Notes: generated from the letters alone by a model not told the origin. A stretch of DNA of 64,000 nucleotides from Kiritimatiellia bacterium (GCA_050949565.1 JBMNFY010000010.1:224001-288000), one strand, 5' to 3'. Numbered from the stretch's first letter, positions 11,216 through 39,167 are shown. Program-made: numbers and translations.

Positions 11216-11316
11216 GAGACGCTTGCTAAACCCCTCGTGGCATGGGCGTCCCGCCCATGGAACACGGGCAAGATGCCCGTGCCACACCTGCAAGCAAGGG
11301 GTTTTGCAAGAGCCTC
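11216..11316 (+). mobile_element. 101-bp MITE copy 1
   Basis: Degenerate left TIR GAGACGCTTGCTAAAC, right GTTTTGCAAGAGCCTC; flanked by GAGTT on both sides; near-identical to 13507 and 34389 copies. Confidence 0.85.
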
Positions 11317-13506: not shown

Positions 13507-13607
13507 GAGGCTCTTGCAAAACCCCTTGATTGCAGGTGTGGCACGGGCATCTTGCCCGTGTTTCATGGGCGGGACGCCCATGCCACGAAGGGTTTAGCAA
13601 GAGCTTC
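13507..13607 (-). mobile_element. 101-bp MITE copy 2 (inverted)
   Basis: GAGGCTCTTGCAAAAC...GTTTAGCAAGAGCTTC flanked by GTAG duplication that includes the MFS stop codon. Confidence 0.88.
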
Positions 13608-26928: not shown

Positions 26929-27795
26929 ATGAAAGATAAGTCTCAGCCAGTTGTGTCGTTTGTGGTCTCAAGAGTGCAGGCGGGCCAGTCGCTCCAAGAG
27001 TTTCTCGCCGCACGGCTCTCAATTTCCAAACGTGCGGCCAAAAATCTGTTGGATGAGCGGGTCGTGTGGGTCAACCGCCGATGCGTGTGGATGACACACC
27101 ACACGCTCAAAACCGGGGATACCGTAGAATTGCCAAGTGCCAACCTGTCCAAGCAGTCGGCGGCGTCGCCGGCGTCAGCAATCCGAATTCTGGTGCAGGA
27201 TGATTTCTATCTGGTGGCCGACAAACCGTCCAATATGCTTTCGGTCGGCGCGCGCAGTGTCGAAGAGACATTGCGCACGCAGACCGGTCTCGCGACGTTG
27301 CGGGCGGTACACCGTCTGGATCGTGACACGACCGGCTGCTTGCTGTTCGCTAAAAATGATGCCGCGTTCGATGCTGCTGTCGAAATCTTTAAGACGCGCC
27401 GGGTCAGCAAGCACTACCGCGTGATCGTGTACGGTCGTTATGAGCGTGCCGCTTCGACCGTGGAGCAGGAGCTGGACGGTGAGCGTGCGGTCAGCCACAT
27501 CCAGCGTGAGATGGCCACCAAAGACGCCAGCTTTCTCAAGGTGAAGATCGAGACAGGACGCACTCACCAAATCCGTCGTCACCTCGCCTCGTTGCGCCAC
27601 CCGGTGCTGGGCGATCGCGAACACGGCATCAAGCACGCGCGCGATCCGCGCCTGCTGACGGTGCCGCGCCAGATGCTCCATGCCGCCGGTCTGGAGATGC
27701 CGCATCCGATGCTTCCAGGGGAGACGCTCAAGGCGCACAGTCCGTTACCGGCCGATTTCCGGCGTTGTCTGAAACTGTTCGGCATGGGTAAATGA
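26929..27795 (+). CDS. RluA family pseudouridine synthase
   Basis: S4-like N-terminus, DKP, HRLDRDTTG, TGRTHQIR, QMLHA. Confidence 0.93.
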   Translation: MKDKSQPVVSFVVSRVQAGQSLQEFLAARLSISKRAAKNLLDERVVWVNRRCVWMTHHTLKTGDTVELPSANLSKQSAASPASAIRILVQDDFYLVADKPSNMLSVGARSVEETLRTQTGLATLRAVHRLDRDTTGCLLFAKNDAAFDAAVEIFKTRRVSKHYRVIVYGRYERAASTVEQELDGERAVSHIQREMATKDASFLKVKIETGRTHQIRRHLASLRHPVLGDREHGIKHARDPRLLTVPRQMLHAAGLEMPHPMLPGETLKAHSPLPADFRRCLKLFGMGK

Positions 27796-27818
27796 GGCGG
27801 ACGTAGGGATCGCTGCGC

Positions 27819-30611
27819 ATGCTCAGTTTCCGTACAGTGTGGGTGACACGGCCGCCGGGACGACAATCGCCGATCTTCGACCTCTTCAAGGGTGATGAGG
27901 GTGAGGCTGCCGATAGTGAGCAGGAGACGCTCTACATCACTCAGGATACGGTTGCGTTTGAAGGATTGCTGCCGTCCGAACGCGCGTATGCAGTCGATGT
28001 GCTGGCCCTACATGCTTTCGCCTTTCCGGACACGCCGGAGGATAACGCGGCGGAGCACTTGCGTCAGGGTGGTGCCAGCGGTGCGGGCCTCTGGGAGGTT
28101 TGGCGCACGATCGAAGCGCGGTTGGCAGCGTTGCCGCTCTGGACGCTGGAGACCATCGAGTTGATATTGCGCGATCTGGACGAACGCGGTCTGGCGCGCG
28201 TGTTCGGTCATTTTGCCGAGTGTGCCCGGCGCGCCGGAACGCGATGCGGGCCGTGGCTGGAAACCTTTACGCCCGATGCGCGCCGGAACGAGCGGCGTAC
28301 CTTGCCGCCGCATGCTGACTGCACCCCGCTGGACGTTGACCGCCTTGCCTCGCATCTGCTGCCCGGCGGCACCTTCTCGCGCCTGATGCCCGGTTATGAA
28401 TCGCGTCCCGGACAGGTGGAGATGCTGCGCGCGGTCGCGCGGGCTTTCAGCGAGGGCCGACACCTATTGGTTGAGGCTGGTACCGGTGTCGGCAAGAGCA
28501 TTGCCTACCTGATCCCCGCCGCCGCATGGGCGTTGCTCAACGATGTGCCGGTGGTGGTCAGCACCAATACGCGCAACCTACAGGCACAGCTTATCGAAAA
28601 AGATTTGCCGCTGGTCCGCGCGGCGGTGTGCGGCAACGACAGCGCCACTCTACGCGTGGCTGTACTGAAGGGGCGCTCGAACTATGCTTGTCTACGGCGG
28701 ATCGCACTCCTGTTGGAGCAGAGTCACTTTGAACTCGAACGTCCCGAACTGCGCCGCTTCGCCTTGGCGTTGGCTTGGATAGCGCAGTCACCTGATGGCG
28801 ATCTCGACACCTTTGCCGGCGCGGGTCATGCCGATGCCGTGTTTCTTGCCAAACTGTCGTCGACCGCTGAAGAGTGTCCCGGACGCGCCTGCCGCTATTG
28901 GCGTCGATGCTTTTTGCAGAAGGCGCGTGCCCGCGCCGCCGCCGCGCATGTGGTCATTGCCAACCACGCGCTGGTTTTTGCCGAGTCGCAGGCCCCCGGT
29001 ACCGCTTTGCCACCTCATGCTCAAATCGTATTCGACGAAGCGCACAACTTGGAGGAGGCGGCGACACGCCATCTTTCCACAGAGTTGACCCAAGCGCGCC
29101 TCAACCAGTTGTTGCGACGTTTGAGCCGTGGTCGCGGCAACCGTGCGGGCGGCGTGTTGGAGGTGTTACGCAATCACCTTCAAAAGGGCGCGATAACGAC
29201 CAACGAAGCATCAGCCAAAGCGTTGCGGCGACAGATCCGCCAGATTCGCAGCGCACTGGAAGAGGTGCAGAATAGCGCCCGCATCTTGTTCGAGGAACTG
29301 CATGGCCTCATCCAGCCGGGCCATGACCCGGTACGTTTCCGCTGTGTGCCGTCCTCCGCCGCAGTGTCTGTGGAAGCCGACGACCTGTTTGCCGATGACG
29401 AGGGTGACGATGCGGCGACGATGTGCGCAGATGGGATGCCGTTTTCCGGTGCATTCACGCGCGAGGTGTGCCGCGACAAACAGTTCGCAGCGTGCCAGGG
29501 CGGTTGGGATGAGGCCGAGGTTCAGCGTTGTCGGCTGGCCGTTAAACATGCGGTTGCGGAGGCCTCTGGCCTGTTGCTGGAGTTGGGCGAGGCGCTGCGC
29601 CAGACCACGGAGGGCGAACTCGCGCTGTATGATGATCAGGCGGCGAATGTCGAGGGTGCGGCAGCGGCGTTGCGTGCCTTCGCGTTGGATATGGATTTCA
29701 TTCTGGCCGCCACCGATACGGAGCATGTCTTTTGGGCGGAGCCGCCGAGCCGCAGTGCCGGGACTGCCAATCTTTACGCCGCGCCGCTGAGCATCGGTGA
29801 GGCGTTGGCCGAGTTGCTCTACCGGCAGAAGGCAACGGTGGTGTTCTGTTCAGCGACTCTGCGCGTCGGCAGTTCATTCGGCTATATCAGCCGACGTCTG
29901 GGGATCGATCGCCTTGAACCTGAACAGCTCATGACCTGTGTGGCGGAGAGTCCGTTCGACTACCTGACGCAGTGCGCGGCTCTAGCTCCCGTCTTTTTAC
30001 CTCCGCCCACCGGCTCCACCGGCGGCAGCTATTCCGAGCAACTCTGCGGTCTGATGCTGGATGTCTTCACGCGGACACGCGGTCGCGCCATGGGGCTCTT
30101 CACCAGTTACGAGATGATGAACCAAGTCGCGCGCCTGCTGGAAGAGCCGTTGCGCGCGGCGGGCATCCGGTTGTTGGTACACGGCACGAACGGAACGCGC
30201 GACCAGATCACGCGGATCTTTCGCTCGGGCGGTTCCTGTGTGCTGCTCGGTACCCATTCATTCTGGGAGGGCGTGGATGTGGCGGGCGAGGCGTTGAGCT
30301 GCGTGGTGATGGCGCGCCTGCCGTTTGCCGCCGTGACAGATCCAATCGTCGAGGCGCGCTGCGAGCAGATCGAACGTGCGGGCGGTAGCGCCTTCCGCGA
30401 GTTCTCCCTGCCACAGGCGGTTATCCGCTTCCGGCAGGGGTTTGGCCGCTTGATCCGTACACGGGCGGATAGGGGAGTGGTGATTGTCGCGGACCCGCGC
30501 GTGATGACCAAGTCCTACGGCGCGACGTTCCGCAAAAGCCTGCCCTGCCCGCTGCTGCGCGTCGGGAGCCGTGACGAGCTGCTGACGCGCGTGGAAGTGC
30601 TCTTCACTTAA
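27819..30611 (+). CDS. DinG/YoaA family Fe-S DNA helicase
   Basis: RPGQ, EAGTGVGKS, KGRSNYAC, C-x4-C-x5-C cluster, ANH, DEAH, SATL, FWEGVD, QGFGRLIR. Confidence 0.93.
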   Translation: MLSFRTVWVTRPPGRQSPIFDLFKGDEGEAADSEQETLYITQDTVAFEGLLPSERAYAVDVLALHAFAFPDTPEDNAAEHLRQGGASGAGLWEVWRTIEARLAALPLWTLETIELILRDLDERGLARVFGHFAECARRAGTRCGPWLETFTPDARRNERRTLPPHADCTPLDVDRLASHLLPGGTFSRLMPGYESRPGQVEMLRAVARAFSEGRHLLVEAGTGVGKSIAYLIPAAAWALLNDVPVVVSTNTRNLQAQLIEKDLPLVRAAVCGNDSATLRVAVLKGRSNYACLRRIALLLEQSHFELERPELRRFALALAWIAQSPDGDLDTFAGAGHADAVFLAKLSSTAEECPGRACRYWRRCFLQKARARAAAAHVVIANHALVFAESQAPGTALPPHAQIVFDEAHNLEEAATRHLSTELTQARLNQLLRRLSRGRGNRAGGVLEVLRNHLQKGAITTNEASAKALRRQIRQIRSALEEVQNSARILFEELHGLIQPGHDPVRFRCVPSSAAVSVEADDLFADDEGDDAATMCADGMPFSGAFTREVCRDKQFAACQGGWDEAEVQRCRLAVKHAVAEASGLLLELGEALRQTTEGELALYDDQAANVEGAAAALRAFALDMDFILAATDTEHVFWAEPPSRSAGTANLYAAPLSIGEALAELLYRQKATVVFCSATLRVGSSFGYISRRLGIDRLEPEQLMTCVAESPFDYLTQCAALAPVFLPPPTGSTGGSYSEQLCGLMLDVFTRTRGRAMGLFTSYEMMNQVARLLEEPLRAAGIRLLVHGTNGTRDQITRIFRSGGSCVLLGTHSFWEGVDVAGEALSCVVMARLPFAAVTDPIVEARCEQIERAGGSAFREFSLPQAVIRFRQGFGRLIRTRADRGVVIVADPRVMTKSYGATFRKSLPCPLLRVGSRDELLTRVEVLFT

Positions 30612-30748
30612 GGGACGGGTTACCTTGCCAGACAGCTTGACCGCTTGCGTCTGGTATTTTGTTGTCCGCGAAAAAACACGATTGATAATGCCTGCCGGTA
30701 AAGCGTACGCTGACGGCGCGCCCTTTTTGTGGGGGCGCACGGAGCCCG

Positions 30749-32428
30749 GTGCGGCACGGGCGGCGGGGAGATAGCACGATGGATGGAAATCTTTTTTGCG
30801 GCGGAACGGATGCCGGCGGGACGGCGTTTATCGGGCTGCCGGGTATTTTGCTTGACATCCCCGACATCATCTGCCTCGGCCCGGACAACAGCGCGTCCTT
30901 TTCCGTGTCGGCCAGCTTCGTGCCCGACGGCGAGGAGATCGCGGGGCAACCGCAGTGGTTCGTCAGCAGCGGGACCGCCACGCCGGAGAGCGGCAACATG
31001 GAGACATGGGTGGACGCGGTTTTCCCCGCGCCCGCGCAGCAGGCCCAGGGGGCACCCGCACCGATGGGCGCGGGCGTGGAAACAAACGGTTCGCCGTCGA
31101 TCACGGCAGAGATCGGCGACAGAACCGTCACGCGCACGCTCGATCCGTCCACGCCGGACGACCCCGACGAACCAGACCCTTGGGACGGCCGGCGTTTCAT
31201 CACCCGCTCCTACGGCGGCGGCACGGAACCGGTGGCGCTGACCTACGCGCTCGCGCACAGCAGCAATGCCGTGACGTTCGCGTGGCACGGGCATCAGGAG
31301 GACACGGTGCTGGAGTGGAGCATCAGCGGGAGCGGGCCGCGCTTTCTCAAGGACGGGCAGGAGGTGTCCAAGGTGACACGGGACCTCTCGGTCTCGGTCC
31401 TGCCGCGCGGGACGGTTTCGAACTTCAAGATCAGGGCGAAGGTCCTGACGCAACTTGGCACGGTCATCACGCGGCAGACCGAGCTGCGCGTGATCAGAAT
31501 CATCGCCGAGCCGGTTCTGTCGTTCGATCAGGGCGCGCCGGTAAATCCCTGCGGTCTTTTCGTCGGCGGCTCCGCAACCTTCCAGATCACATTTTCATCG
31601 AACGTCAGGGCAGAGGATGTGCAGTGGTCCGTTGCCGACGGCAACGCCGCGCTCGCCTTCGGTCCGCAAAGCACCGCGCCCCAGATCGTGGTCGGCCTCG
31701 CGCCGGGCACGGAAACGCTGGCCGCCAATATCGCGCACTACGTCGGCCCGCCGCCGCAATTCAATTTCGAGGTGTACCCCTATGCCGACCCTATCGCCTT
31801 GCATTTCATGCTCATCTGCGATAACAACGGTAACCACGCCGGATCGGCGTCCGACATCCCCGGCCTCATCACCGGTGTCAACGACATCTACCGCCAGGAG
31901 GGGCTCCGCTTTGCGCAGGCCTCCGTTTCGTACACGAATGAGATATCTTGGTACCTCAATTCGGAGATCAGCAATATTCAGCGAGAAATCGTCAACGTCA
32001 TGACCAACACAGGCGGGCTTGAAATCTATATCGTTCCGAATATCGCGCCCGGCGTTGCGGGAAGAAGTTTAGGTAGTCAAGGAATATTAGTCAACGGAAG
32101 CGTCACCTCTCATATTCTTGCGCACGAGATCGGACATCGATGCGGCTGGAAGGACATCTACATCTCGCGGCCAAATGTCCCGCCTGTGAGCGGTCCCGTC
32201 TCCATTGGCCGATTGCCGCTGGACTGGAACAACGGGCCGGGACCGGAGGAGTACTATCCGCGCGGGCTACAACAAGCTACACTGATTGTGCGACTCCTCA
32301 TGTATGGTACCACGGCGGGGGGCAAAGACATTCCAACTGGCTCGGTGTACGGGTTGAACAAAGAGAAGGTTCTTGCCAACATCGTAACCGGGGTGCAGAG
32401 TATGAACCGTACCCCATCCCATGACTAA
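30749..32428 (+). CDS. Metzincin-like zinc metalloprotease with beta-rich N-terminal stalk; possibly 5'-truncated
   Basis: LAHEIGHRCGWKD (HExxHxxGxxD) plus downstream LLMYG Met-turn-like motif; PD-rich linker; no clear signal peptide. Confidence 0.7.
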   Translation: MRHGRRGDSTMDGNLFCGGTDAGGTAFIGLPGILLDIPDIICLGPDNSASFSVSASFVPDGEEIAGQPQWFVSSGTATPESGNMETWVDAVFPAPAQQAQGAPAPMGAGVETNGSPSITAEIGDRTVTRTLDPSTPDDPDEPDPWDGRRFITRSYGGGTEPVALTYALAHSSNAVTFAWHGHQEDTVLEWSISGSGPRFLKDGQEVSKVTRDLSVSVLPRGTVSNFKIRAKVLTQLGTVITRQTELRVIRIIAEPVLSFDQGAPVNPCGLFVGGSATFQITFSSNVRAEDVQWSVADGNAALAFGPQSTAPQIVVGLAPGTETLAANIAHYVGPPPQFNFEVYPYADPIALHFMLICDNNGNHAGSASDIPGLITGVNDIYRQEGLRFAQASVSYTNEISWYLNSEISNIQREIVNVMTNTGGLEIYIVPNIAPGVAGRSLGSQGILVNGSVTSHILAHEIGHRCGWKDIYISRPNVPPVSGPVSIGRLPLDWNNGPGPEEYYPRGLQQATLIVRLLMYGTTAGGKDIPTGSVYGLNKEKVLANIVTGVQSMNRTPSHD

Positions 32429-32445
32429 TCAACTGAGGAGCAATA

Positions 32446-33795
32446 ATGACACTCACTAGCATTTTAGCGACTTTCACTATGATTGGTTTGGCACTCGTTT
32501 CTATTGAGGCGAATGCTCAGACAAACACAACCCATCTCGATGTTGGACTGGAAATACTGTTCAAACCGTTTCCAGAGAAGGAAAACGGTTCGTCTGAAGG
32601 CGATGATTCTAGGGTCGCCCGTGTGTTGGACTGGCTGGGATGCCGTAAAGGATTACCCATAACAAACGAAATAGATCGGATTCTATTTGCACCGCAAAGT
32701 CCTTATCGGCCAATAGCATTCTTCATTCGCCCATACTTTTCCGTGCCGAATGAAAGAAGCTTAGGGAGGCAAGTCGTGAGCACTCTTCCGTACATTGAAC
32801 GGAAAACATGTTATGTCACGGCATTGGAACACCTCGATTTCCGTAGAGATAAAGGGACTCGGCTGATGGCACAGGCGGATTCATTGTTACAGGATTGCGC
32901 TATAGCAGAGACAGGTGGATATCTGGCCGCTTTACTCGACAAAGGGCTGGTCGAAAATGCCAGTGGTTGGGCAGGGCGGAATGCCCGGAAACATGTTGCC
33001 GTCCGACATGTCAAAGTCGAGGGAGATGCGGGGGGGTATTTCCGTGCCGTTCTTGCTGAAATCGGCTCTCCTTCAAAGCCGTCTTTGACAACTGTCATTT
33101 CCGAACTTTGCGATGTTTATTTTTGTGGCACCGATGAGATTTCTATAGAAGAACAAGAGTTACACCAAAGCTTAAACATCATGCGGTTCGCCCAAGACCA
33201 CAACATGACTGAACCCGAAGCTGTCCGTTTGATGGCGGATGCACTTCGGGAAACTTTACGAAAAAAAGAAACTGATGAGCGCGGACGGTTAAATTTGTAT
33301 AGCCTGATCACAGCCCTCAGTCTAAGCCGAGGGTTCGGCACAGAAGGAGTCTTGCTTGATGCGGCATTTTCTGAATGGAACCCGAATCGTTATGCGAGCC
33401 TTTTAGGGTTTCTTCGGATTGCCTCACCCCAAGCCACTCTGAATGCTGCTCGGCGTGTGATTGACGACAAAACCAATTTTACTGCACTTGAGCGTAACGG
33501 TTGCTACAAGAAACTCGCCGAATTAGCCGGTTCTCGGGAAAGCGAAAGGACAGATATTCAGAATGAAATCGTGTCATTTCTACAAACCTCAACAGAAAGA
33601 GAGCCAGACGCTTTTATTTGTCATATGCTTGACGTAAAACTTTTGAATATTTTGCCGGATTGGGAAAATTCGGAGAACCGTAGAAAACTTGCCGCAAGAT
33701 TTGCGGATCAGGGTGACCAGAATGCTATCGGGTCTTATTTCCGAGAGGTGCTACAAAAGATCGATAACAGTTCACAAAGAGAAAAGCAAAAATGA
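32446..33795 (+). CDS. Secreted helical hypothetical protein (candidate protease partner/inhibitor)
   Basis: GAGGAG RBS, signal peptide ending ANA-Q, visibly lower GC than flanks. Confidence 0.75.
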   Translation: MTLTSILATFTMIGLALVSIEANAQTNTTHLDVGLEILFKPFPEKENGSSEGDDSRVARVLDWLGCRKGLPITNEIDRILFAPQSPYRPIAFFIRPYFSVPNERSLGRQVVSTLPYIERKTCYVTALEHLDFRRDKGTRLMAQADSLLQDCAIAETGGYLAALLDKGLVENASGWAGRNARKHVAVRHVKVEGDAGGYFRAVLAEIGSPSKPSLTTVISELCDVYFCGTDEISIEEQELHQSLNIMRFAQDHNMTEPEAVRLMADALRETLRKKETDERGRLNLYSLITALSLSRGFGTEGVLLDAAFSEWNPNRYASLLGFLRIASPQATLNAARRVIDDKTNFTALERNGCYKKLAELAGSRESERTDIQNEIVSFLQTSTEREPDAFICHMLDVKLLNILPDWENSENRRKLAARFADQGDQNAIGSYFREVLQKIDNSSQREKQK

Positions 33796-34040
33796 CGATG
33801 CCGCTCTCGCGGGATCATTTGTCGACTGCCGATTGGAACAACGGGCCGGGGCCGCAGGAATACTATCCGCGCGAGTTGCCGCTGGCAACGGTGATCAAGC
33901 GGTGCCTGATGTTCGGGTACACATCGGGCGGCAAGGACATTCCGGCGGGCCCAATCAAAGGGTATGACAAGGAAGGGAAGTTCGGCCCCGTTCCGGTCGG
34001 GACACAGGGGATGGAACGAAGACCGGCTCACAGTGAATAA
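33792..34040 (+). pseudogene. Orphan alternative C-terminus of the metalloprotease
   Basis: DWNNGPGPQEYYPR...CLMFG..GGKDIP aligns to DWNNGPGPEEYYPR...LLMYG..GGKDIP of 30749..32428; lacks HExxH. Confidence 0.85.
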
Positions 34041-34070
34041 TCCTACGTGATGAAAGCAAAGGAGGAAGCA

Positions 34071-34592
34071 ATGAGAATCAGGTGTGTTTTTTTGACCGCG
34101 TTGATGTTCGGCATGTGTTGGGTTGCCTTGGGGCAATATGTAAGCCCGACAGACTCTGCAACGCGTATCCATAGGGTGGCTCCGACGACGAGGCCGTGGT
34201 ATGAACCGGACGACTCGCTGGTGTCGATGACGTTTCTCGCGGAAACGGTGGTCAAGCGGGTTCCCGCTGAACAGCGGAGAGCATGGTATAACGATTCGCG
34301 CCGCCTCTCCTTCAAACCCGCGATAGACGCGCAATATATCGACCGCCCGTCCCGCGAGGCACTCCGTTTCGCGCACTTCCTTTTTACGGAGGCTCTTGCA
34401 AAACCCCTCGTGGCATGGGCGTCCCGCCCATGAAACACGGGCAAGATGCCCGTGCCACACCTGCACGCAAGGGGTTTTGCAAGAGCCTCTACGGTAAAAC
34501 AGATCGAGAGCGACCCCGAGTGCCTGCGAGCCATCGGGAATCCCGTCGATCCGAAGCGGGAGTGTCAACAAGAGAGAAAGGATAAAAAATGA
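34071..34592 (+). pseudogene. Secreted hypothetical protein interrupted by MITE copy 3
   Basis: GGAGG RBS and signal peptide; removing the MITE plus one TACG restores the frame (...HFLFT-VKQIESDPEC...KDKK*) ending in an ATGA overlap with the next gene. Confidence 0.8.
34389..34489 (+). mobile_element. 101-bp MITE copy 3
   Basis: Perfect TIR GAGGCTCTTGCAAAACCCCT / AGGGGTTTTGCAAGAGCCTC; TACG target duplication. Confidence 0.92.
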
Positions 34593-35341
34593 TGACGATG
34601 CTGATGGGTGTTTTGCTGTGCTTTTTAGGCGCTTTTCATGCGTCCGCCGCTGTGGTGTCGCAATGCGAGGCTGTCGCGGACAGAGTGCTCGTGAATGCGG
34701 ATGGTTGTGTGCTGTCATGGATATCTTTGCGCGAAGGGGCGGCATGGAGCCCGGCCATCGCGGGGGCGACGTCTTGGGGATTGCCCGCGTTGGAAACGGA
34801 GGGGATCACGTTCGATACGCCGGGCGCCCCGGCCTCGCCGTTCTGCTCCAGTGCCATTTCGGTTTCGACGCTCTTCATCGTAGCGTGTCCGGCAGAATCA
34901 TCCAATCACTTTGCCGCACTTGTCGAGGCCCCCGGGGTGGCTGTGACAGTGGCTGCCCGTGCTTTGCCGCTGACCTACGACCCCGAGGATGCCGAAGGGC
35001 TTTCCGTACGCGTCAACGGCCAACCGGTGTTGACGTTTCCCGACGGGCGGCATATCGTGGAGGTTGATTTCGCGCAGGCTGTGCCCGGCTGCGACCTTCG
35101 GATAGGCGGGGTCTCGGCATGCGCTTCGTGGCGGCAATCGTGGCGCGGCCACATATCGGAGGTTGTCGCGTTTGACACGTCGCCCGATGAGGCTGTCCGT
35201 CGGACTGTCCGTAGCTACCTCGCCCGCCGCCACGGTGTCGCGGGATACTTCCCGCCGCCCGGACCCGAGGCCGTTCTGCAGGCCATGTCGCTCGGCCTGT
35301 ATACGCACGCCCTTTTCTCAACGCAGTTGTTCATGCGATAA
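34589..35341 (+). CDS. Secreted hypothetical protein, LamG/concanavalin-like
   Basis: Signal peptide; LRIGG...WRGHISEVVAFD...VRSYLARRHG typical of LamG-like C-termini. Confidence 0.6.
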   Translation: MMTMLMGVLLCFLGAFHASAAVVSQCEAVADRVLVNADGCVLSWISLREGAAWSPAIAGATSWGLPALETEGITFDTPGAPASPFCSSAISVSTLFIVACPAESSNHFAALVEAPGVAVTVAARALPLTYDPEDAEGLSVRVNGQPVLTFPDGRHIVEVDFAQAVPGCDLRIGGVSACASWRQSWRGHISEVVAFDTSPDEAVRRTVRSYLARRHGVAGYFPPPGPEAVLQAMSLGLYTHALFSTQLFMR

Positions 35342-35415
35342 ATTACGAACGTCTCGTACCGGTTTTTATAGGCACTTACTACTCATTACCTGTTACTTCT
35401 TACTCCGTGTGCTTG

Positions 35416-36378
35416 CTACGGCGCGTTACCGGCTGGCGCGGGTGGTGCCGTGAGCCGTTCCTTGCGGTTTTGCAGCACGGTTTGAAGCTGGGCCTTGGTG
35501 ATGCCGAAGTCCATGCGCACCGCACTGCCTTCACAGGTGATGCCGATCTGCGAGGCCAGTCCCGCCGCTTCCGGCTCTTCGGCGGCGCGCAACATGGCGA
35601 GGGCACGGAGGCCCATCAACGCCTGATACACCTGTTGCGCCGTTTGTTCATCCGCCGCGGTGACCGCGAGCGCGGTCTTGAGGGTCTCAGCGTTCGGCGT
35701 TCCGATCCGCAAGCTGAGCGACTTGGCCTGACGTAAGGCCTGGGCGGTGGGCTGTGTGCCCACGATATCCGCCAAGTCCGAAGCGTGAAGGGTCAGCACG
35801 TCGCCGGGCGAAGGCGTGAATGCCGCGCGCAAGGGCGTGTTGGCGGGAAGGCTGGGACGGCGCGCGGCCAGCACATCAAGCGCTTTCACCAGCGGACCGG
35901 CTTGATCGGAAAAGAGCGCGAGCCCCGGCTTGGCAAATGCTGCGTGTTTCGTTTTTTTGTCGGCCTTATCGTGCCAACGCTGGATCACAGTGCCGTGATA
36001 GTTGGAAGTGGAATAGTCATCGGCTCCCGCAAGGATGGTCGTTAGGCGCTGCGCGTCAAATCGGCCATAGATATAGGCGACGCCGCCTTTTGATGCATCG
36101 CCGTCGCCTGCGATCACGATATGGTCGATATCCTTTTTCAGGTTCACGCCGAACATCGCTTCGATAGCCGCGAGTTTGCGCTCAGCCTCCTGACGCTTGT
36201 CGGCGTCGATCTGATCGCGCACAAAAGAGAACAGCGGCGAGGCCTGCACCGCTTTCAGATCCAGCATCAGTACCCAGTGGGTCTGGGCGGAGAAATCACG
36301 CGCTTCGATAGCGTGGAGTCGGCAGGCGCACGCCAACATCAGCGCGGCCGTGAATGCGAAAGCAGGTTTCATAGTCAT
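35416..36378 (-). CDS. Secreted hypothetical protein
   Basis: Signal peptide, 320 aa, host-like codon usage, follows the DUF1080 gene. Confidence 0.75.
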   Translation of the reverse strand: MTMKPAFAFTAALMLACACRLHAIEARDFSAQTHWVLMLDLKAVQASPLFSFVRDQIDADKRQEAERKLAAIEAMFGVNLKKDIDHIVIAGDGDASKGGVAYIYGRFDAQRLTTILAGADDYSTSNYHGTVIQRWHDKADKKTKHAAFAKPGLALFSDQAGPLVKALDVLAARRPSLPANTPLRAAFTPSPGDVLTLHASDLADIVGTQPTAQALRQAKSLSLRIGTPNAETLKTALAVTAADEQTAQQVYQALMGLRALAMLRAAEEPEAAGLASQIGITCEGSAVRMDFGITKAQLQTVLQNRKERLTAPPAPAGNAP

Positions 36379-36414
36379 GGGGAGTTCCTTTCAGAAATCA
36401 ACGATGAACCGCAC

Positions 36415-37194
36415 TTACGGTTTCAGCGGCTTGATCTCCACTTTGCGGAAATCGACCGGGTGGCTTTCCGACTGAAGCGAGATACTGCCGCCCTCGATCA
36501 GCACATTACCGCCGTTCGCTTCAATCAAACGTTTGGCATCGCCGTCTTTCGGATCGTACTGCGGCTTGTCATATTGGAGGACCGTCACGCCGTCGATGCG
36601 GTGGATGATGGTCTGGCTACCGCGCGCTTCGACCTCCACGGTGACCCACTGATCGCCGTGATAGGTCTTCGATGTCGAGCTGAGTCCGTGAGGCGTGTAG
36701 AGTGCGCCGTCCCGCTCGACATTCGTGCCCGGTGTGCAGAGGTTGGCGGTTGTCCGGTTGCCGGAGCCGAGACCGCCGAGGAATTGGACCTCAATCGAAA
36801 CCGGGAAATCCTGATCTTTGCGCATCGACTCCGGCGACTGGCCGTGGACCATCACGCCGCTGTTGCGCTTGGCCCATCCCGGACCGTCGGGCAGTTGCTC
36901 GCCGACAAAGCGGTATTCGATGCGCAGGATGTAGTTGGTGAACGGGGTTTTGTAGAAAAGGTGTCCGAAGCGGTTTTTGAACGCACCGCCATATTCGTCG
37001 TAACGCACCTTGATCAGGCCGTCCTCGACACGGAACGTATTAGCGAAATTTTCGCCTGCTGGGTAACCCTTGATTTTGGGTGTCCAGCCATCCAGGTCCT
37101 TGCCGTTGAATAGCGGGGTCCATCCGTCGTTGGCCGATGCGCAACAGGCTGCGGCGAAAATCAAAGCGGCCAAACTTTTTGCGGTCAATGTCAT
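36415..37194 (-). CDS. DUF1080 (3-keto-disaccharide hydrolase family) protein
   Basis: WTPLFNGKDLDGW, NSGV, EVQ, GSISLQSE.HPVDFRKVEIK. Confidence 0.9.
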   Translation of the reverse strand: MTLTAKSLAALIFAAACCASANDGWTPLFNGKDLDGWTPKIKGYPAGENFANTFRVEDGLIKVRYDEYGGAFKNRFGHLFYKTPFTNYILRIEYRFVGEQLPDGPGWAKRNSGVMVHGQSPESMRKDQDFPVSIEVQFLGGLGSGNRTTANLCTPGTNVERDGALYTPHGLSSTSKTYHGDQWVTVEVEARGSQTIIHRIDGVTVLQYDKPQYDPKDGDAKRLIEANGGNVLIEGGSISLQSESHPVDFRKVEIKPLKP

Positions 37195-37293
37195 GTCGGG
37201 TCTCCTGAAAAGTTGAAAAACACACGTGTGAGACGATCAGGCCACGTAGCCTCAAGGTTGGGAACAGTGTTACATAAGCGCGCGTCGAAGGCA

Positions 37294-37455
37294 ATGTTGA
37301 ACCTGACATGTTGAACCTGAAAAGAGCAGTTGAACCTTCAACACCCTTTAGTTTCAGGTTTCATGGTTTCATCCCAATCGGGATCGCTATCGGGATCGAT
37401 TGTTTAACCACGGAACACGGAAGGGATAAAAACTCCTAACTCCTAACTCCTAAAT
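37294..37455. repeat. Cluster of several short-period repeats
   Basis: GTTGAACC x3, GTTTCA x3, ATCGGG/ATCGCT 6-mers, TTAACCACGGAACACGGAA, (ACTCCTA)3. Confidence 0.75.
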
Positions 37456-39167
37456 CCGCGCACAGCGGTGAGGATATCTTTCTGCGCTTGCTTGGCGCGT
37501 AACCCGCGTGTGACGGTAATCGGTTGGCCGGTGAAGGGGTTGATCCCAGTGTAGTACATCGCGGTCGACCACGTGGACGGGGTCGGCGTGAAGATCTGGA
37601 CTTGCTCGGGTGCAAGGCGCAGGTGCCGTGAGGCGAACTGTTTGAGCGCGAGCATCTCGGCATCGCCGCAACCGGGGTGCGCCGCGATGAAGTAGTAGGT
37701 CAGAAATTGCTTGAGGTGATGACGCTCATTCGCCGCACGGAACAGCTTCACGAAATCCAACAGTGACTCTTGGCCGGGCTTGCCCATCGCGCGCAGGACG
37801 CGGGGATCGGCGTGCTCGGGCGCGAGCTTGAGTTGGCCTGAGACGTGGTGCGCGACCAGTTCGTCGATGTAAGCCGCGCCGTGATTCGGATCGGCCGCGA
37901 TCAGGTCGGGGCGAATGCCGGACGCCACAAACACTTTACGTACGCCAGGCAGGCGGCGCAGGCGTCTGAGCAGGGAAATCTGTGCGCTGTGGTCGGGCTT
38001 GAGTGCCGGACAGCAGGTCGGGAAGAGGCAACGCTTGGATGCGCAGGCACCCTGTTTGGTTTTGCGCTCGCACTCAAAGCCGTACATGTTGGCAGTGGGG
38101 CCGCCCACGTCTTGGATGATGCCGGTGAAGGCGGGGTGGCGCGTCAGGCGGCGCGCTTCTTCCACGATCGAGTCTTCGGAGCGGCTGACGACCTGTCGGC
38201 CCTGGTGGATGGCAATCGCACAGAAGTTGCACTCACCATAACAGCCACGGTGCGTCGCCAGCGAGAAGCGGATGGTGTCCAGCGCACGGACTTTGCCTTT
38301 GGCCGCGTGGATGGGATGCACGTCGAGCGTGAAGGGCAACGCATGCACGGCATCCAATTCGGCAGTCGAGAGCGGCGTGTCCGGCGGCATGTGCACCAGA
38401 CAGCGTGTGTCGATCTGCTGTAAGAGGGGGCGCGCGGTATGCGGATCCTGATTGGCGGCAAAGAGACGAAACATCTCAAGAAAGGCCGCGCGGCCTGCCG
38501 GTGTGGCTGCGGCCACCGAGGCGTAGTCGGGCAGATGCAACGCATCGGCCGGCAACGAGTCGGAGTTTGCAGGCTGCGCGTAGCAGATGCTGCGCAGACG
38601 GCGCCAATCGTGTCCGTCGCGCAGCGCATGTGCCAGCAGGGTCATGGTGCGCTCGCCCATGCCGTAAACCAAGATGTCGGCCTTGGCGTCGAAGAGCACG
38701 GGGCGGCGCACGGAGTCGGACCAGTAATCGTAGTGCGCGATGCGCCGCAGGCTGGCCTCGATGCCACCGATAACGATGGGGCGGCAGGGTTTGAATGCGC
38801 GTCGGATCAGATTGCAATACGCAATGACCGCGCGGTCAGGACGCACGTTATTGACGCCGCCGGGCGTGAAGTCGTCCTGTCGCCGCTTCTTGCCAGTCGC
38901 CGTGTAGTTGGCGACCATCGAGTCGACACAACCACCGGAAACTCCCCAGAAGAGGCGCGGCTCGCCGAGACGGCGGATGTCATCGAGGCTCGCGACATCG
39001 GGCTGGGCAATGATGGCGGTGCGAAAGCCCGCCGCCAGTAGCGTTCGCCCGATGACGGCAATCCCGCAGAAGGGCGAGTCGATGTAGGCGTCACCCGACA
39101 CCAAGATAACATCCAGCGCATCCCAACCCAGTCGCTCGATTTCGGCGGTTGTGCAGGGCAGAAACAT
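37443..39167 (-). CDS. YgiQ family radical SAM protein
   Basis: MFLP, VILVSGDAYID, DSMVANYT, GGIEASLRR.AHYDYW, RGCYGECNFC, APEH, QVQIFTPTP. Confidence 0.95.
   Translation of the reverse strand: MFLPCTTAEIERLGWDALDVILVSGDAYIDSPFCGIAVIGRTLLAAGFRTAIIAQPDVASLDDIRRLGEPRLFWGVSGGCVDSMVANYTATGKKRRQDDFTPGGVNNVRPDRAVIAYCNLIRRAFKPCRPIVIGGIEASLRRIAHYDYWSDSVRRPVLFDAKADILVYGMGERTMTLLAHALRDGHDWRRLRSICYAQPANSDSLPADALHLPDYASVAAATPAGRAAFLEMFRLFAANQDPHTARPLLQQIDTRCLVHMPPDTPLSTAELDAVHALPFTLDVHPIHAAKGKVRALDTIRFSLATHRGCYGECNFCAIAIHQGRQVVSRSEDSIVEEARRLTRHPAFTGIIQDVGGPTANMYGFECERKTKQGACASKRCLFPTCCPALKPDHSAQISLLRRLRRLPGVRKVFVASGIRPDLIAADPNHGAAYIDELVAHHVSGQLKLAPEHADPRVLRAMGKPGQESLLDFVKLFRAANERHHLKQFLTYYFIAAHPGCGDAEMLALKQFASRHLRLAPEQVQIFTPTPSTWSTAMYYTGINPFTGQPITVTRGLRAKQAQKDILTAVRGFRS

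Follow-up and report, generated by a model that had tools for sequence, protein, structure and literature searches.

A polymorphic-toxin-like locus with candidate cassettes of a partial metzincin-fold domain and its partner gene in a Kiritimatiellia bacterium

A stretch of 64,000 nucleotides from a Kiritimatiellia bacterium (GCA_050949565.1 JBMNFY010000010.1:224001-288000), hereafter the window, carries between positions 30,749 and 34,592 the gene of a predicted metzincin-fold protease, a gene for a secreted partner protein, an orphan copy of the end of the protease and the remnant of a second partner gene. We propose, with a probability of roughly 0.6, that this is a cassette-exchange locus of the polymorphic-toxin kind in a partly decayed copy; this reading takes in recombination, inhibition and antagonism as presumed steps. 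As judged from sequence comparison, alternative cassettes, each composed of a lower half of the catalytic domain and its own partner gene, are stored downstream as orphans or in other genomes. We envision that a new lower half is joined to the constant body of the gene by homologous recombination inside the domain, an event that would bring in its partner as well, the site of exchange being the DWNNGPGPxEYYPR block or any sufficiently similar stretch. The partner would bind the variable lower half and the cleft, inhibit the protease and protect the producer; the variable half would set which partner inhibits and perhaps also which substrate is cut, and the most likely use would be antagonism between related bacteria. 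We infer the toxin, immunity and inhibitor roles, the binding of the partner and the activity of the protease from sequence and from analogy. More tentative, at a little less than an even chance, is the stricter proposition that a specificity-bearing rear half and a cognate alpha-solenoid inhibitor form one unit, which is stored, exchanged and placed by recombination onto a constant front half, a conserved block inside the fold serving as the handle.

The protease open reading frame (ORF) spans 30749..32428 on the plus strand, which also carries the other ORFs of the locus, and encodes 559 residues with a probable start at ATG 30779. Its catalytic domain (31769..32425; 219 residues), to which a structure model together with Foldseek and VIA-align assigns a metzincin fold, contains the zinc-binding motif HEIGHRCGWKD (HExxHxxGxxD; 32123..32155), borne out by a 21-sequence alignment, then a first copy of a DNA anchor, DWNNGPGPEEYYPR (32222..32263), and an RLLMYG segment whose nearly invariant methionine in the alignment marks a candidate Met-turn (32291..32308). 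The partner gene B449 (32446..33795) encodes 449 residues, a signal peptide followed in the model by an all-alpha solenoid, and has a guanine-plus-cytosine (GC) content of 0.47, against 0.62 for the protease. Its stop overlaps the start codon of the orphan in an ATGA joint (33792..33795) that recurs in L048, L049 and L050, three related loci on metagenome contigs. The 82-residue orphan (33792..34040) matches protease residues 492-558 at 38/67 identities (57 %; BLASTP, E 1e-25), the copied tail amounting to the last 68-80 residues of the protease, and is 90 % identical to the C-terminus of a 328-residue orphan on C17 (orphan328). In the DNA alignment a near-identical block, the anchor with its second copy DWNNGPGPQEYYPR (33831..33872), stands out from a moderately similar remainder. 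The last ORF (34047..34433; 128 residues) is a remnant of an A-type partner that has about 440 residues when intact, as in L049 and L050: over its first 62 residues it shares 65-77 % identity with the start of the ~440-residue partner found after the protease at four sister loci of this genome (C10:46-52k, C13:5-12k, C1:10-16k and C17:91-102k), and this start is joined to a piece of the second repeat. A first-pass annotation of this DNA had picked out the HExxHxxGxxD protease, the low-GC secreted gene, the fragment homologous to the protease end and the anchor shared by both, all of which hold up; it took the last secreted gene to be unrelated, and in this it was mistaken.

The catalytic domain of the window gene has the profile of a mosaic. 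Against the DNA of orphan328 it is 93-100 % identical from 31569 to about 32070 and 55-75 % identical thereafter. Identity profile, trees and approximately unbiased (AU) tests place the crossover zone at 32057..32083, roughly 15 codons ahead of the HExxH helix and 50 ahead of the anchor, and delimit a swapped piece of about 120 residues that includes the active-site helix. The upper-half tree unites the window gene and orphan328 in one clade (support 98/94), and the AU test rejects a grouping of the window gene with L049 (p 0.0045); for the lower half, L049 is the closest row of the tree (87 %), and a grouping with orphan328 is rejected (p 0.00015), p-values that are weakened by our having named the tree groups after the identity profile was seen. 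At the downstream joint the last codons of B449 run straight into TGACGATGCCG of the resident gene (PPLTMPLS) with TGAC in common, and the joint therefore made both the stop of B449 and the ATG of the orphan. By these alignments, a type-1 module (residues ~440-559) together with B449 is shown to have replaced the resident module, and the replacement left behind the old 82-residue lower half and the old, now truncated, partner. At C17:91-102k there is a counterpart, in which a gene divergent in its 3' third and a B414 partner are followed by orphan328 and two A-type partners; the displaced piece there, at 328 residues, comprises the whole catalytic domain and more.

Might the mosaic have arisen in the computer, as an assembly chimera between paralogues that are 93-96 % identical? 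The genome does hold five paralogous loci with long near-identical stretches. An independent biogas metagenome, however, yielded a 2116-nucleotide contig (X2) that covers 31748-33863 with one differing letter and spans both the crossover zone and the joint between B449 and the orphan; L047, another metagenome locus, matches the window over 27000-34389 and 34490-38000 at 99.97 % and thus spans the whole locus, deletion joint included. Moreover, about 95 % of the sampled words of the window occur in 14 DNA runs from at least nine studies of biogas and digester samples. The joints are thus confirmed by independent assemblies (X2 and L047), the layout is no artefact of this assembly, and a chimera, already disfavoured on these grounds, strikes us as highly improbable.

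Relative to the paralogue at C10:46-49k, about 1086 nucleotides (362 codons) are gone from the protease of the window in frame, with four nucleotides common to both sides of the joint at 30851..30854, and the deletion takes out the hydrophobic anchor and the TSP3 region. This joint rests on L047 and on the assembly, and is bridged by none of the contigs listed from four runs. With this deletion and the truncated 128-residue partner the window copy is partly decayed, and its protease may be dead.

Related loci indicate what undamaged cassettes look like. The protease query finds 23 matches in its own genome, eight of them in open frames of 90-331 residues, and the partner cassettes differ among L048, L049 and L050. 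A search of metagenome contigs with B449 yielded six loci (L047-L052). L049 is an intact relative, with a 938-residue protease that ends in the window-type C-terminus, B449 (93 %), an 82-residue orphan, an intact 449-residue A partner and a 250-residue gene; L051 has the same pattern. L050 has B449 (98 %), an orphan 100 % identical to the lower half of the C1 gene and an A441-type partner (91 %), and L052 has a window-type end and a B449-like gene (83 %) without an orphan. L048 has a full gene and a 483-residue partner followed by three orphan-plus-partner cassettes: a 91-residue orphan with a 218-residue partner, a 70-residue orphan with B449, and an 82-residue orphan with a 453-residue partner. 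L048_o70, the orphan of 70 residues, shares 99 % identity with window residues 492-559 and has its start two codons ahead of DWNNGPGP. Its anchor is mixed, with GPGPQ of one type followed by LQQ of another and Q where expressed type-1 genes have E, and for this reason it suggests a crossover inside the anchor.

In all we count seven lower-half orphans (70-123 residues) on five contigs, six of 70-91 residues (one each in the window, L049 and L050, three in L048) and a seventh of 123 residues, 41 % identical to residues 492-558, that follows a partner-like gene in a distant Kiritimatiellaeota metagenome-assembled genome (MAG). In the window subfamily the orphan unit runs from about the DWNNGPGP block to the stop and takes in the next gene. 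All seven have open frames, and in 6/7 a full-length gene of partner type or for a secreted protein comes next, the exception being the window orphan with its truncated partner. Cassettes in which an orphan has a partner gene of its own are found in the window, at C17:91-102k and C17:1096-1112k, and in L048, L049, L050 and L037. Three units occur in both fused and orphan positions: the window gene and L048_o70 (99 % in the lower half, 98 % in the partner), the C1 gene and the L050 orphan L050_o82 (100 % and 91 %), and G018 and the L048 orphan L048_o91 (90 % and 91 %). An earlier classing of the C-termini into two types, A and B, broke on G018 and was dropped; finer types were adopted after L048 turned out to have the same lower half and the same 218-residue partner as G018. 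A separate locus search with a 9-row alignment gave 16 loci, of which ten (L031-L039 and L046) were analysed and L040-L045, partial 24-39 % matches on Bacteroidota and Actinomycetes contigs, were left out. The catalytic domain is present in 14/41 genomes of relatives (8/24 of the same family), a count that includes the window genome, and named contigs with the family belong to Kiritimatiellae, Lentisphaerae and Verrucomicrobia MAGs.

Thus, the idea put forward in the first-pass annotation, that the lower half and its partner are swapped together at the anchor, survives in part. The extent of the orphan units, the mixed anchor of L048_o70 and the recurrence of the window lower half and B449 as an orphan unit all speak for it; the position of the crossover does not, lying upstream of the anchor in the window and leaving a far larger displaced piece on C17.

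Alternatively, the 82- and 128-residue ORFs could be functionless debris of tandem duplication and deletion, the start near the anchor being one old joint copied around. The internal deletion and the truncated partner of the window locus would be in line with this, as would the joint between B449 and the orphan, which is letter-identical in the window, L048, L049 and L050 and fits a single origin. Given the differing orphan types behind it, that joint is compatible with a single old joint and later exchange at the next anchor, or with movement of a cassette with both of its flanks. Ratios of non-synonymous to synonymous substitution rates (dN/dS), all of them rough given the short sequences, also bear on this: 0.36-0.46 for the window orphan against three relatives, suggestive of relaxed constraint, 0.15 and 0.67 in the other two orphan comparisons, 0.29 for B449, and 0.06-0.11 for the type-1 lower half, the comparison of fused and orphan copies included (5 synonymous changes, 1 non-synonymous). 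Debris would not readily account, however, for at least three joint types (L048_o91, L048_o70 and the class of 82-residue orphans) and a further type of handle in distant arrays, nor for the open frames of all seven orphans, the genes that follow six of them and the identical cassettes in fused and orphan positions. On balance we judge debris an improbable explanation.

What are the partners? Those of the window subfamily form, by sequence similarity, one divergent superfamily: B449 and the B414 partner share 25 % identity over 279 residues (E 1e-14), and B414 and the A-type partners 33-36 % (E ~1e-18). A-type partners are internal duplications of a unit of about 200 residues, a unit that also stands alone as the 218-residue partner of G018 and L048. 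The partner gene lies about 6-28 nucleotides after the lower half in every locus examined, and the proteins have cleavable-looking signal peptides. At C10:49-52k and C13:8-11k two partner genes (A436 then A452) stand in succession without an orphan. A word-based homologue search with B449 retrieved three close proteins only. Among 1.84 billion proteins, a profile of five B-type partners matched 64 representatives with E no higher than 1e-3, of which 18 stayed at or below 1e-30. B449 itself has no Pfam match, and two remote matches of the profile pass HEAT_2. Its model is all-alpha with 24 helices (predicted local distance difference test, pLDDT, 81; the first ~59 residues, signal peptide included, are of low confidence), and a structure search returned generic helical-repeat matches (best Z 11.2), below the level at which they would mean more than "alpha-solenoid". 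HEAT-repeat immunity proteins and toxin-immunity cassettes are described by Zhang et al. (2012; PMC3482391).

Cassette boundaries inside the catalytic domain are not peculiar to the window subfamily. At C17:1096-1112k (minus strand) a 1307-residue gene and its partner come first, and three units of an orphan (153, 257 and 165 residues) with a partner come next; the partners there have signal peptides and a GC content of 0.54-0.56. The two orphans of this array (of three) whose starts were located both open with a (D)SMGN(A/V)VELYFV handle, as do orphans on C15 and C14. The equivalent strand in the window is GGLEIYIV (32012..32035), just before the active-site helix and inside the catalytic domain, and a conserved 3' end of a partner precedes each distant-array orphan examined. 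Such boundaries within the domain are thus recurrent in the protease family. The partners of the two subfamilies look unrelated, the profile of B-type partners giving a probability of 0.4 % in hhalign against one distant C17-array partner. Distant arrays of a ~1300-residue gene with units of a low-GC secreted partner and a partial domain are also found at C15:73000-84000, C14:41000-45830 and C15:118000-125000. At C17:1930000-1950000 a 1282-residue protease gene and two low-GC partner genes of ~295 residues form an exact tandem duplicate about 6.9 kb apart, and three more secreted genes of ~285 residues come next, a run that resembles a poly-partner (polyimmunity-like) arrangement.

The intact protease can be described from the sister loci, whose proteins of 908-950 residues comprise an N-terminal hydrophobic segment, TSP3 repeats (Pfam TSP3_bac at threshold), an immunoglobulin (Ig)-like region and the catalytic domain. 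Sequence features and model together show a predicted product of about 950 residues that would be Sec-exported, membrane- or surface-anchored, and equipped with a C-terminal domain of metzincin fold. Among the four full-length paralogues the N-terminal regions are nearly identical in C10b, C13 and C17a and more divergent in C1, and the catalytic domains are 37-74 % identical. All five loci share one plan: protease, partner (one or two of ~440 residues in the sisters) and a near-identical 250-residue gene.

Across 21 catalytic domains from the same genome and its relatives, the A, H, E, H and D of AHExxHxxxxxD never vary, and C, G (including that of the zinc motif), Y, DW, YY, R and M are nearly invariant. 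The methionine of RLLM, a candidate Met-turn, is conserved in at least 90 % of them. The AlphaFold model built on this alignment (pLDDT 89.8; predicted template modelling score, pTM, 0.88) matches PAPP-A (8a7d_C; VIA-align Z 12.6, root-mean-square deviation 4.0 over 181 residues), proulilysin (8cdb_A; Z 12.5) and snake-venom/ADAM proteases (Z 12.2-12.4), and these matches span model residues 1-217, that is, the whole domain. Foldseek gives a probability of 1.0 for metzincin matches. Pfam and NCBIfam scans of the five window proteins gave no usable match (Pfam E up to 1), and neither the window protein (E up to 1) nor a full-length paralogue has a Pfam match to Tox-MPTase, Tox-ALF or Tox-HopH1. 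The full-length paralogue stays under the Pfam cut-offs for Reprolysin_3 (15.8 bits, 22.4 needed) and Reprolysin_5 (11.9, 27 needed). Because it lies below every Pfam reprolysin threshold, we treat the protease as a metzincin by motif and predicted fold and as a member of no curated family.

The main rival explanation starts from this fold. The partner might be a dedicated chaperone or latency factor that keeps an exported metzincin folded and silent until release, as CpaB does for CpaA; the cassettes would then vary substrate specificity or surface epitopes, for instance against phages or changing substrates, and the orphans would be silent cassettes. To our knowledge, no orphan-plus-partner arrays have been described for secreted enzymes that depend on a chaperone. 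Among the Foldseek matches is the CpaA-CpaB complex (6o38; E 2e-4), and CpaA has Ig-like repeats and a C-terminal metzincin domain whose catalytic site is blocked by the tail of a partner encoded next door (PMC7542363), an architecture similar to that of our locus. Partners far larger than typical immunity proteins would also suit such a role, as would a genome in which five secretins score above the family cut-off and a type VI secretion system (T6SS) sheath gene was not found. On the other side, orphan-plus-partner arrays are the hallmark of conflict systems (PMC3482391), and the partners here have cleavable-looking signal peptides where CpaB has an N-terminal membrane anchor (PMC7542363). 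The likeness to CpaA and CpaB concerns the fold and architecture of the protease. A chaperone or latency role is one that we consider unlikely, though less so than debris, and we continue to favour a cassette-exchange locus of the polymorphic-toxin kind.

Several observations weigh against that preference. The crossover in the window does not lie at the anchor, and the lower half and B449 appear to have different histories when the window is compared with L049, the synonymous rate (dS) being 0.88 for the lower half (32222-32425; 24.8/48 sites) and 0.105 for B449 (32446-33792; 30.5/310 sites). The partners are large (218-485 residues) and often doubled in tandem, and at L031:949-2968 a B449-like partner is followed by an A-like one with no orphan between. 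In 15/20 pairs the lower half and the partner point to the same nearest neighbour, with a Mantel r of 0.81 between the two, but these figures do not show cognate function, because an adjacent lower half and partner are inherited together regardless of any interaction. The five mismatching pairs are W_orph82, whose partner is a remnant, G001a, which is distant from all others, L049_prot and L052_prot, whose neighbours fall within the same type, and L049_o82, a real mismatch in which a C1-like lower half stands before an A449-like partner. In the window the protease lacks its hydrophobic anchor and B449 keeps its signal peptide, so that the two would sit in different compartments. The family is rare, being present in 3/201 genomes across the class, the window genome included. 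Finally, the T6SS sheath family PF05943 was not found in the 92 %-complete genome, in which we recognised no dedicated delivery route.

Further features surround the locus. A nested-hairpin repeat of about 101-105 nucleotides, dispersed in the genome, occupies 34389..34489 at the 3' end of the partner remnant and is absent from this site in L047; contigs of four runs likewise join 34384 directly to 34490. The repeat recurs in the window at 11216-11316 and 13507-13607, forms a near-perfect nested hairpin (-74.3 kcal/mol, z -10.5) without an Rfam match, and gives 278 blastn high-scoring segment pairs, 97 of them of at least 90 nucleotides, on 19/21 contigs. It looks like a mobile element of the miniature inverted-repeat transposable element or repetitive extragenic palindromic kind with insertion polymorphism. 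The conserved gene for a 250-residue secreted protein (34589..35341) closes the loci of the window subfamily. Its DNA is 94-96 % identical across the five loci, and in G018 it lies upstream instead; the protein has no Pfam match, and a LamG-like fold is a weak lead (Atlas score 0.93, 141 shared features). Rfam revealed no RNA family within 30400-35600. Pieces of 31812-32526 and 33431-34384 are also covered by RNA-library contigs, but DNA carry-over may account for these, and contigs do not allow expression to be ranked.

If the proposal is correct, new protease and inhibitor specificities would arise in nature through the exchange of part of an enzyme, and the locus would represent a new effector-immunity family of Kiritimatiellia/Lentisphaerae-type bacteria. 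Should the partners prove to be specific inhibitors, the cassettes would amount to a natural series of chimeric metzincins with matched inhibitors, from which one could learn where in a metzincin the specificity for inhibitor and substrate is set. The toxin reading, if true, would also add a protease-based conflict system and a new partner family to little-studied bacteria of anaerobic digesters and the gut, for which the open-access literature gave us no such system. Nor did we meet there with a paper in which metzincins, orphans and polymorphic toxins come together, or with one that joins Kiritimatiellae with polymorphic toxins. The protease family, the partner family and the sub-domain cassette boundary are new, and sub-domain cassettes seem to be undescribed, as far as the open-access literature goes.

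How does the locus compare with systems already known? Like the pappalysin/ulilysin and adamalysin/ADAM families, the protease has the whole-domain fold (Z 12-12.6), the extended zinc motif and the conserved methionine, but identity is just 8-17 % and the third ligand position is Asp here; the DWNNGPGPxEYYP block sets the window subfamily apart from these metzincins. Colicin E DNases and their Im proteins are homologous enzyme variants each with a homologous specific inhibitor, without arrays of partial-domain orphans. In pilE/pilS, silent cassettes of a partial gene recombine into an expression site, and pilS cassettes have no partner gene. For CpaAB we know of no cassette arrays or orphans. 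In polymorphic toxin loci, exchange takes place at a motif ahead of the toxin domain, and it is whole domains, often unrelated to one another, that are exchanged. In our locus the alternatives are all homologous forms of a single protease, and a stored cassette holds part of the fold only, which means that one constant front half has to work with many rear halves. CpaA-CpaB of Acinetobacter (PDB 6o38) resembles our locus in its Ig-like and C-terminal metzincin parts and its adjacent partner gene; CpaB, which binds the protease and blocks its catalytic site, is membrane-anchored and small where the partners here are large (PMC7542363).

Closest in kind are the polymorphic toxins, several of whose features recur here: a constant N-terminal part with a variable C-terminal end, a downstream co-varying gene (which adjacency alone could give) and orphans with a partner. 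The layout of expressed gene, partner, displaced orphan C-terminus and old partner is in this respect the toxin-type layout that the first-pass annotation had recognised. Tox-MPTase1-5, Tox-ALF and Tox-HopH1 (PMC3482391) are likewise HExxH peptidases at the C-terminus of large exported proteins in polymorphic loci, but small Wss1-like zincins, whereas the fold here is of the pappalysin/adamalysin-like metzincin type; in the table of that source Tox-ALF alone has a listed immunity family (Imm-SuFu), with none given for HopH1 or MPTase1-5. The closest mechanistic precedent is the recombination of a main rhs gene with an orphan to give an expressed fusion (PMC3967940, Koskiniemi et al., 2014). 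Rhs and CdiA loci (PMC3482391, PMC3967940) share with ours the constant 5' body, the variable 3' end, the adjoining cognate gene, the displaced 3' fragments with partner downstream and the recombination to new fusions. Unlike in those loci, all alternatives here are homologous versions of one domain, and the cassettes are cut within that domain, not at a pre-toxin motif ahead of it; the partners are secreted proteins of 218-485 residues from one superfamily, the toxicity is presumed, and we noticed no Rhs, FHA or T6SS surroundings.

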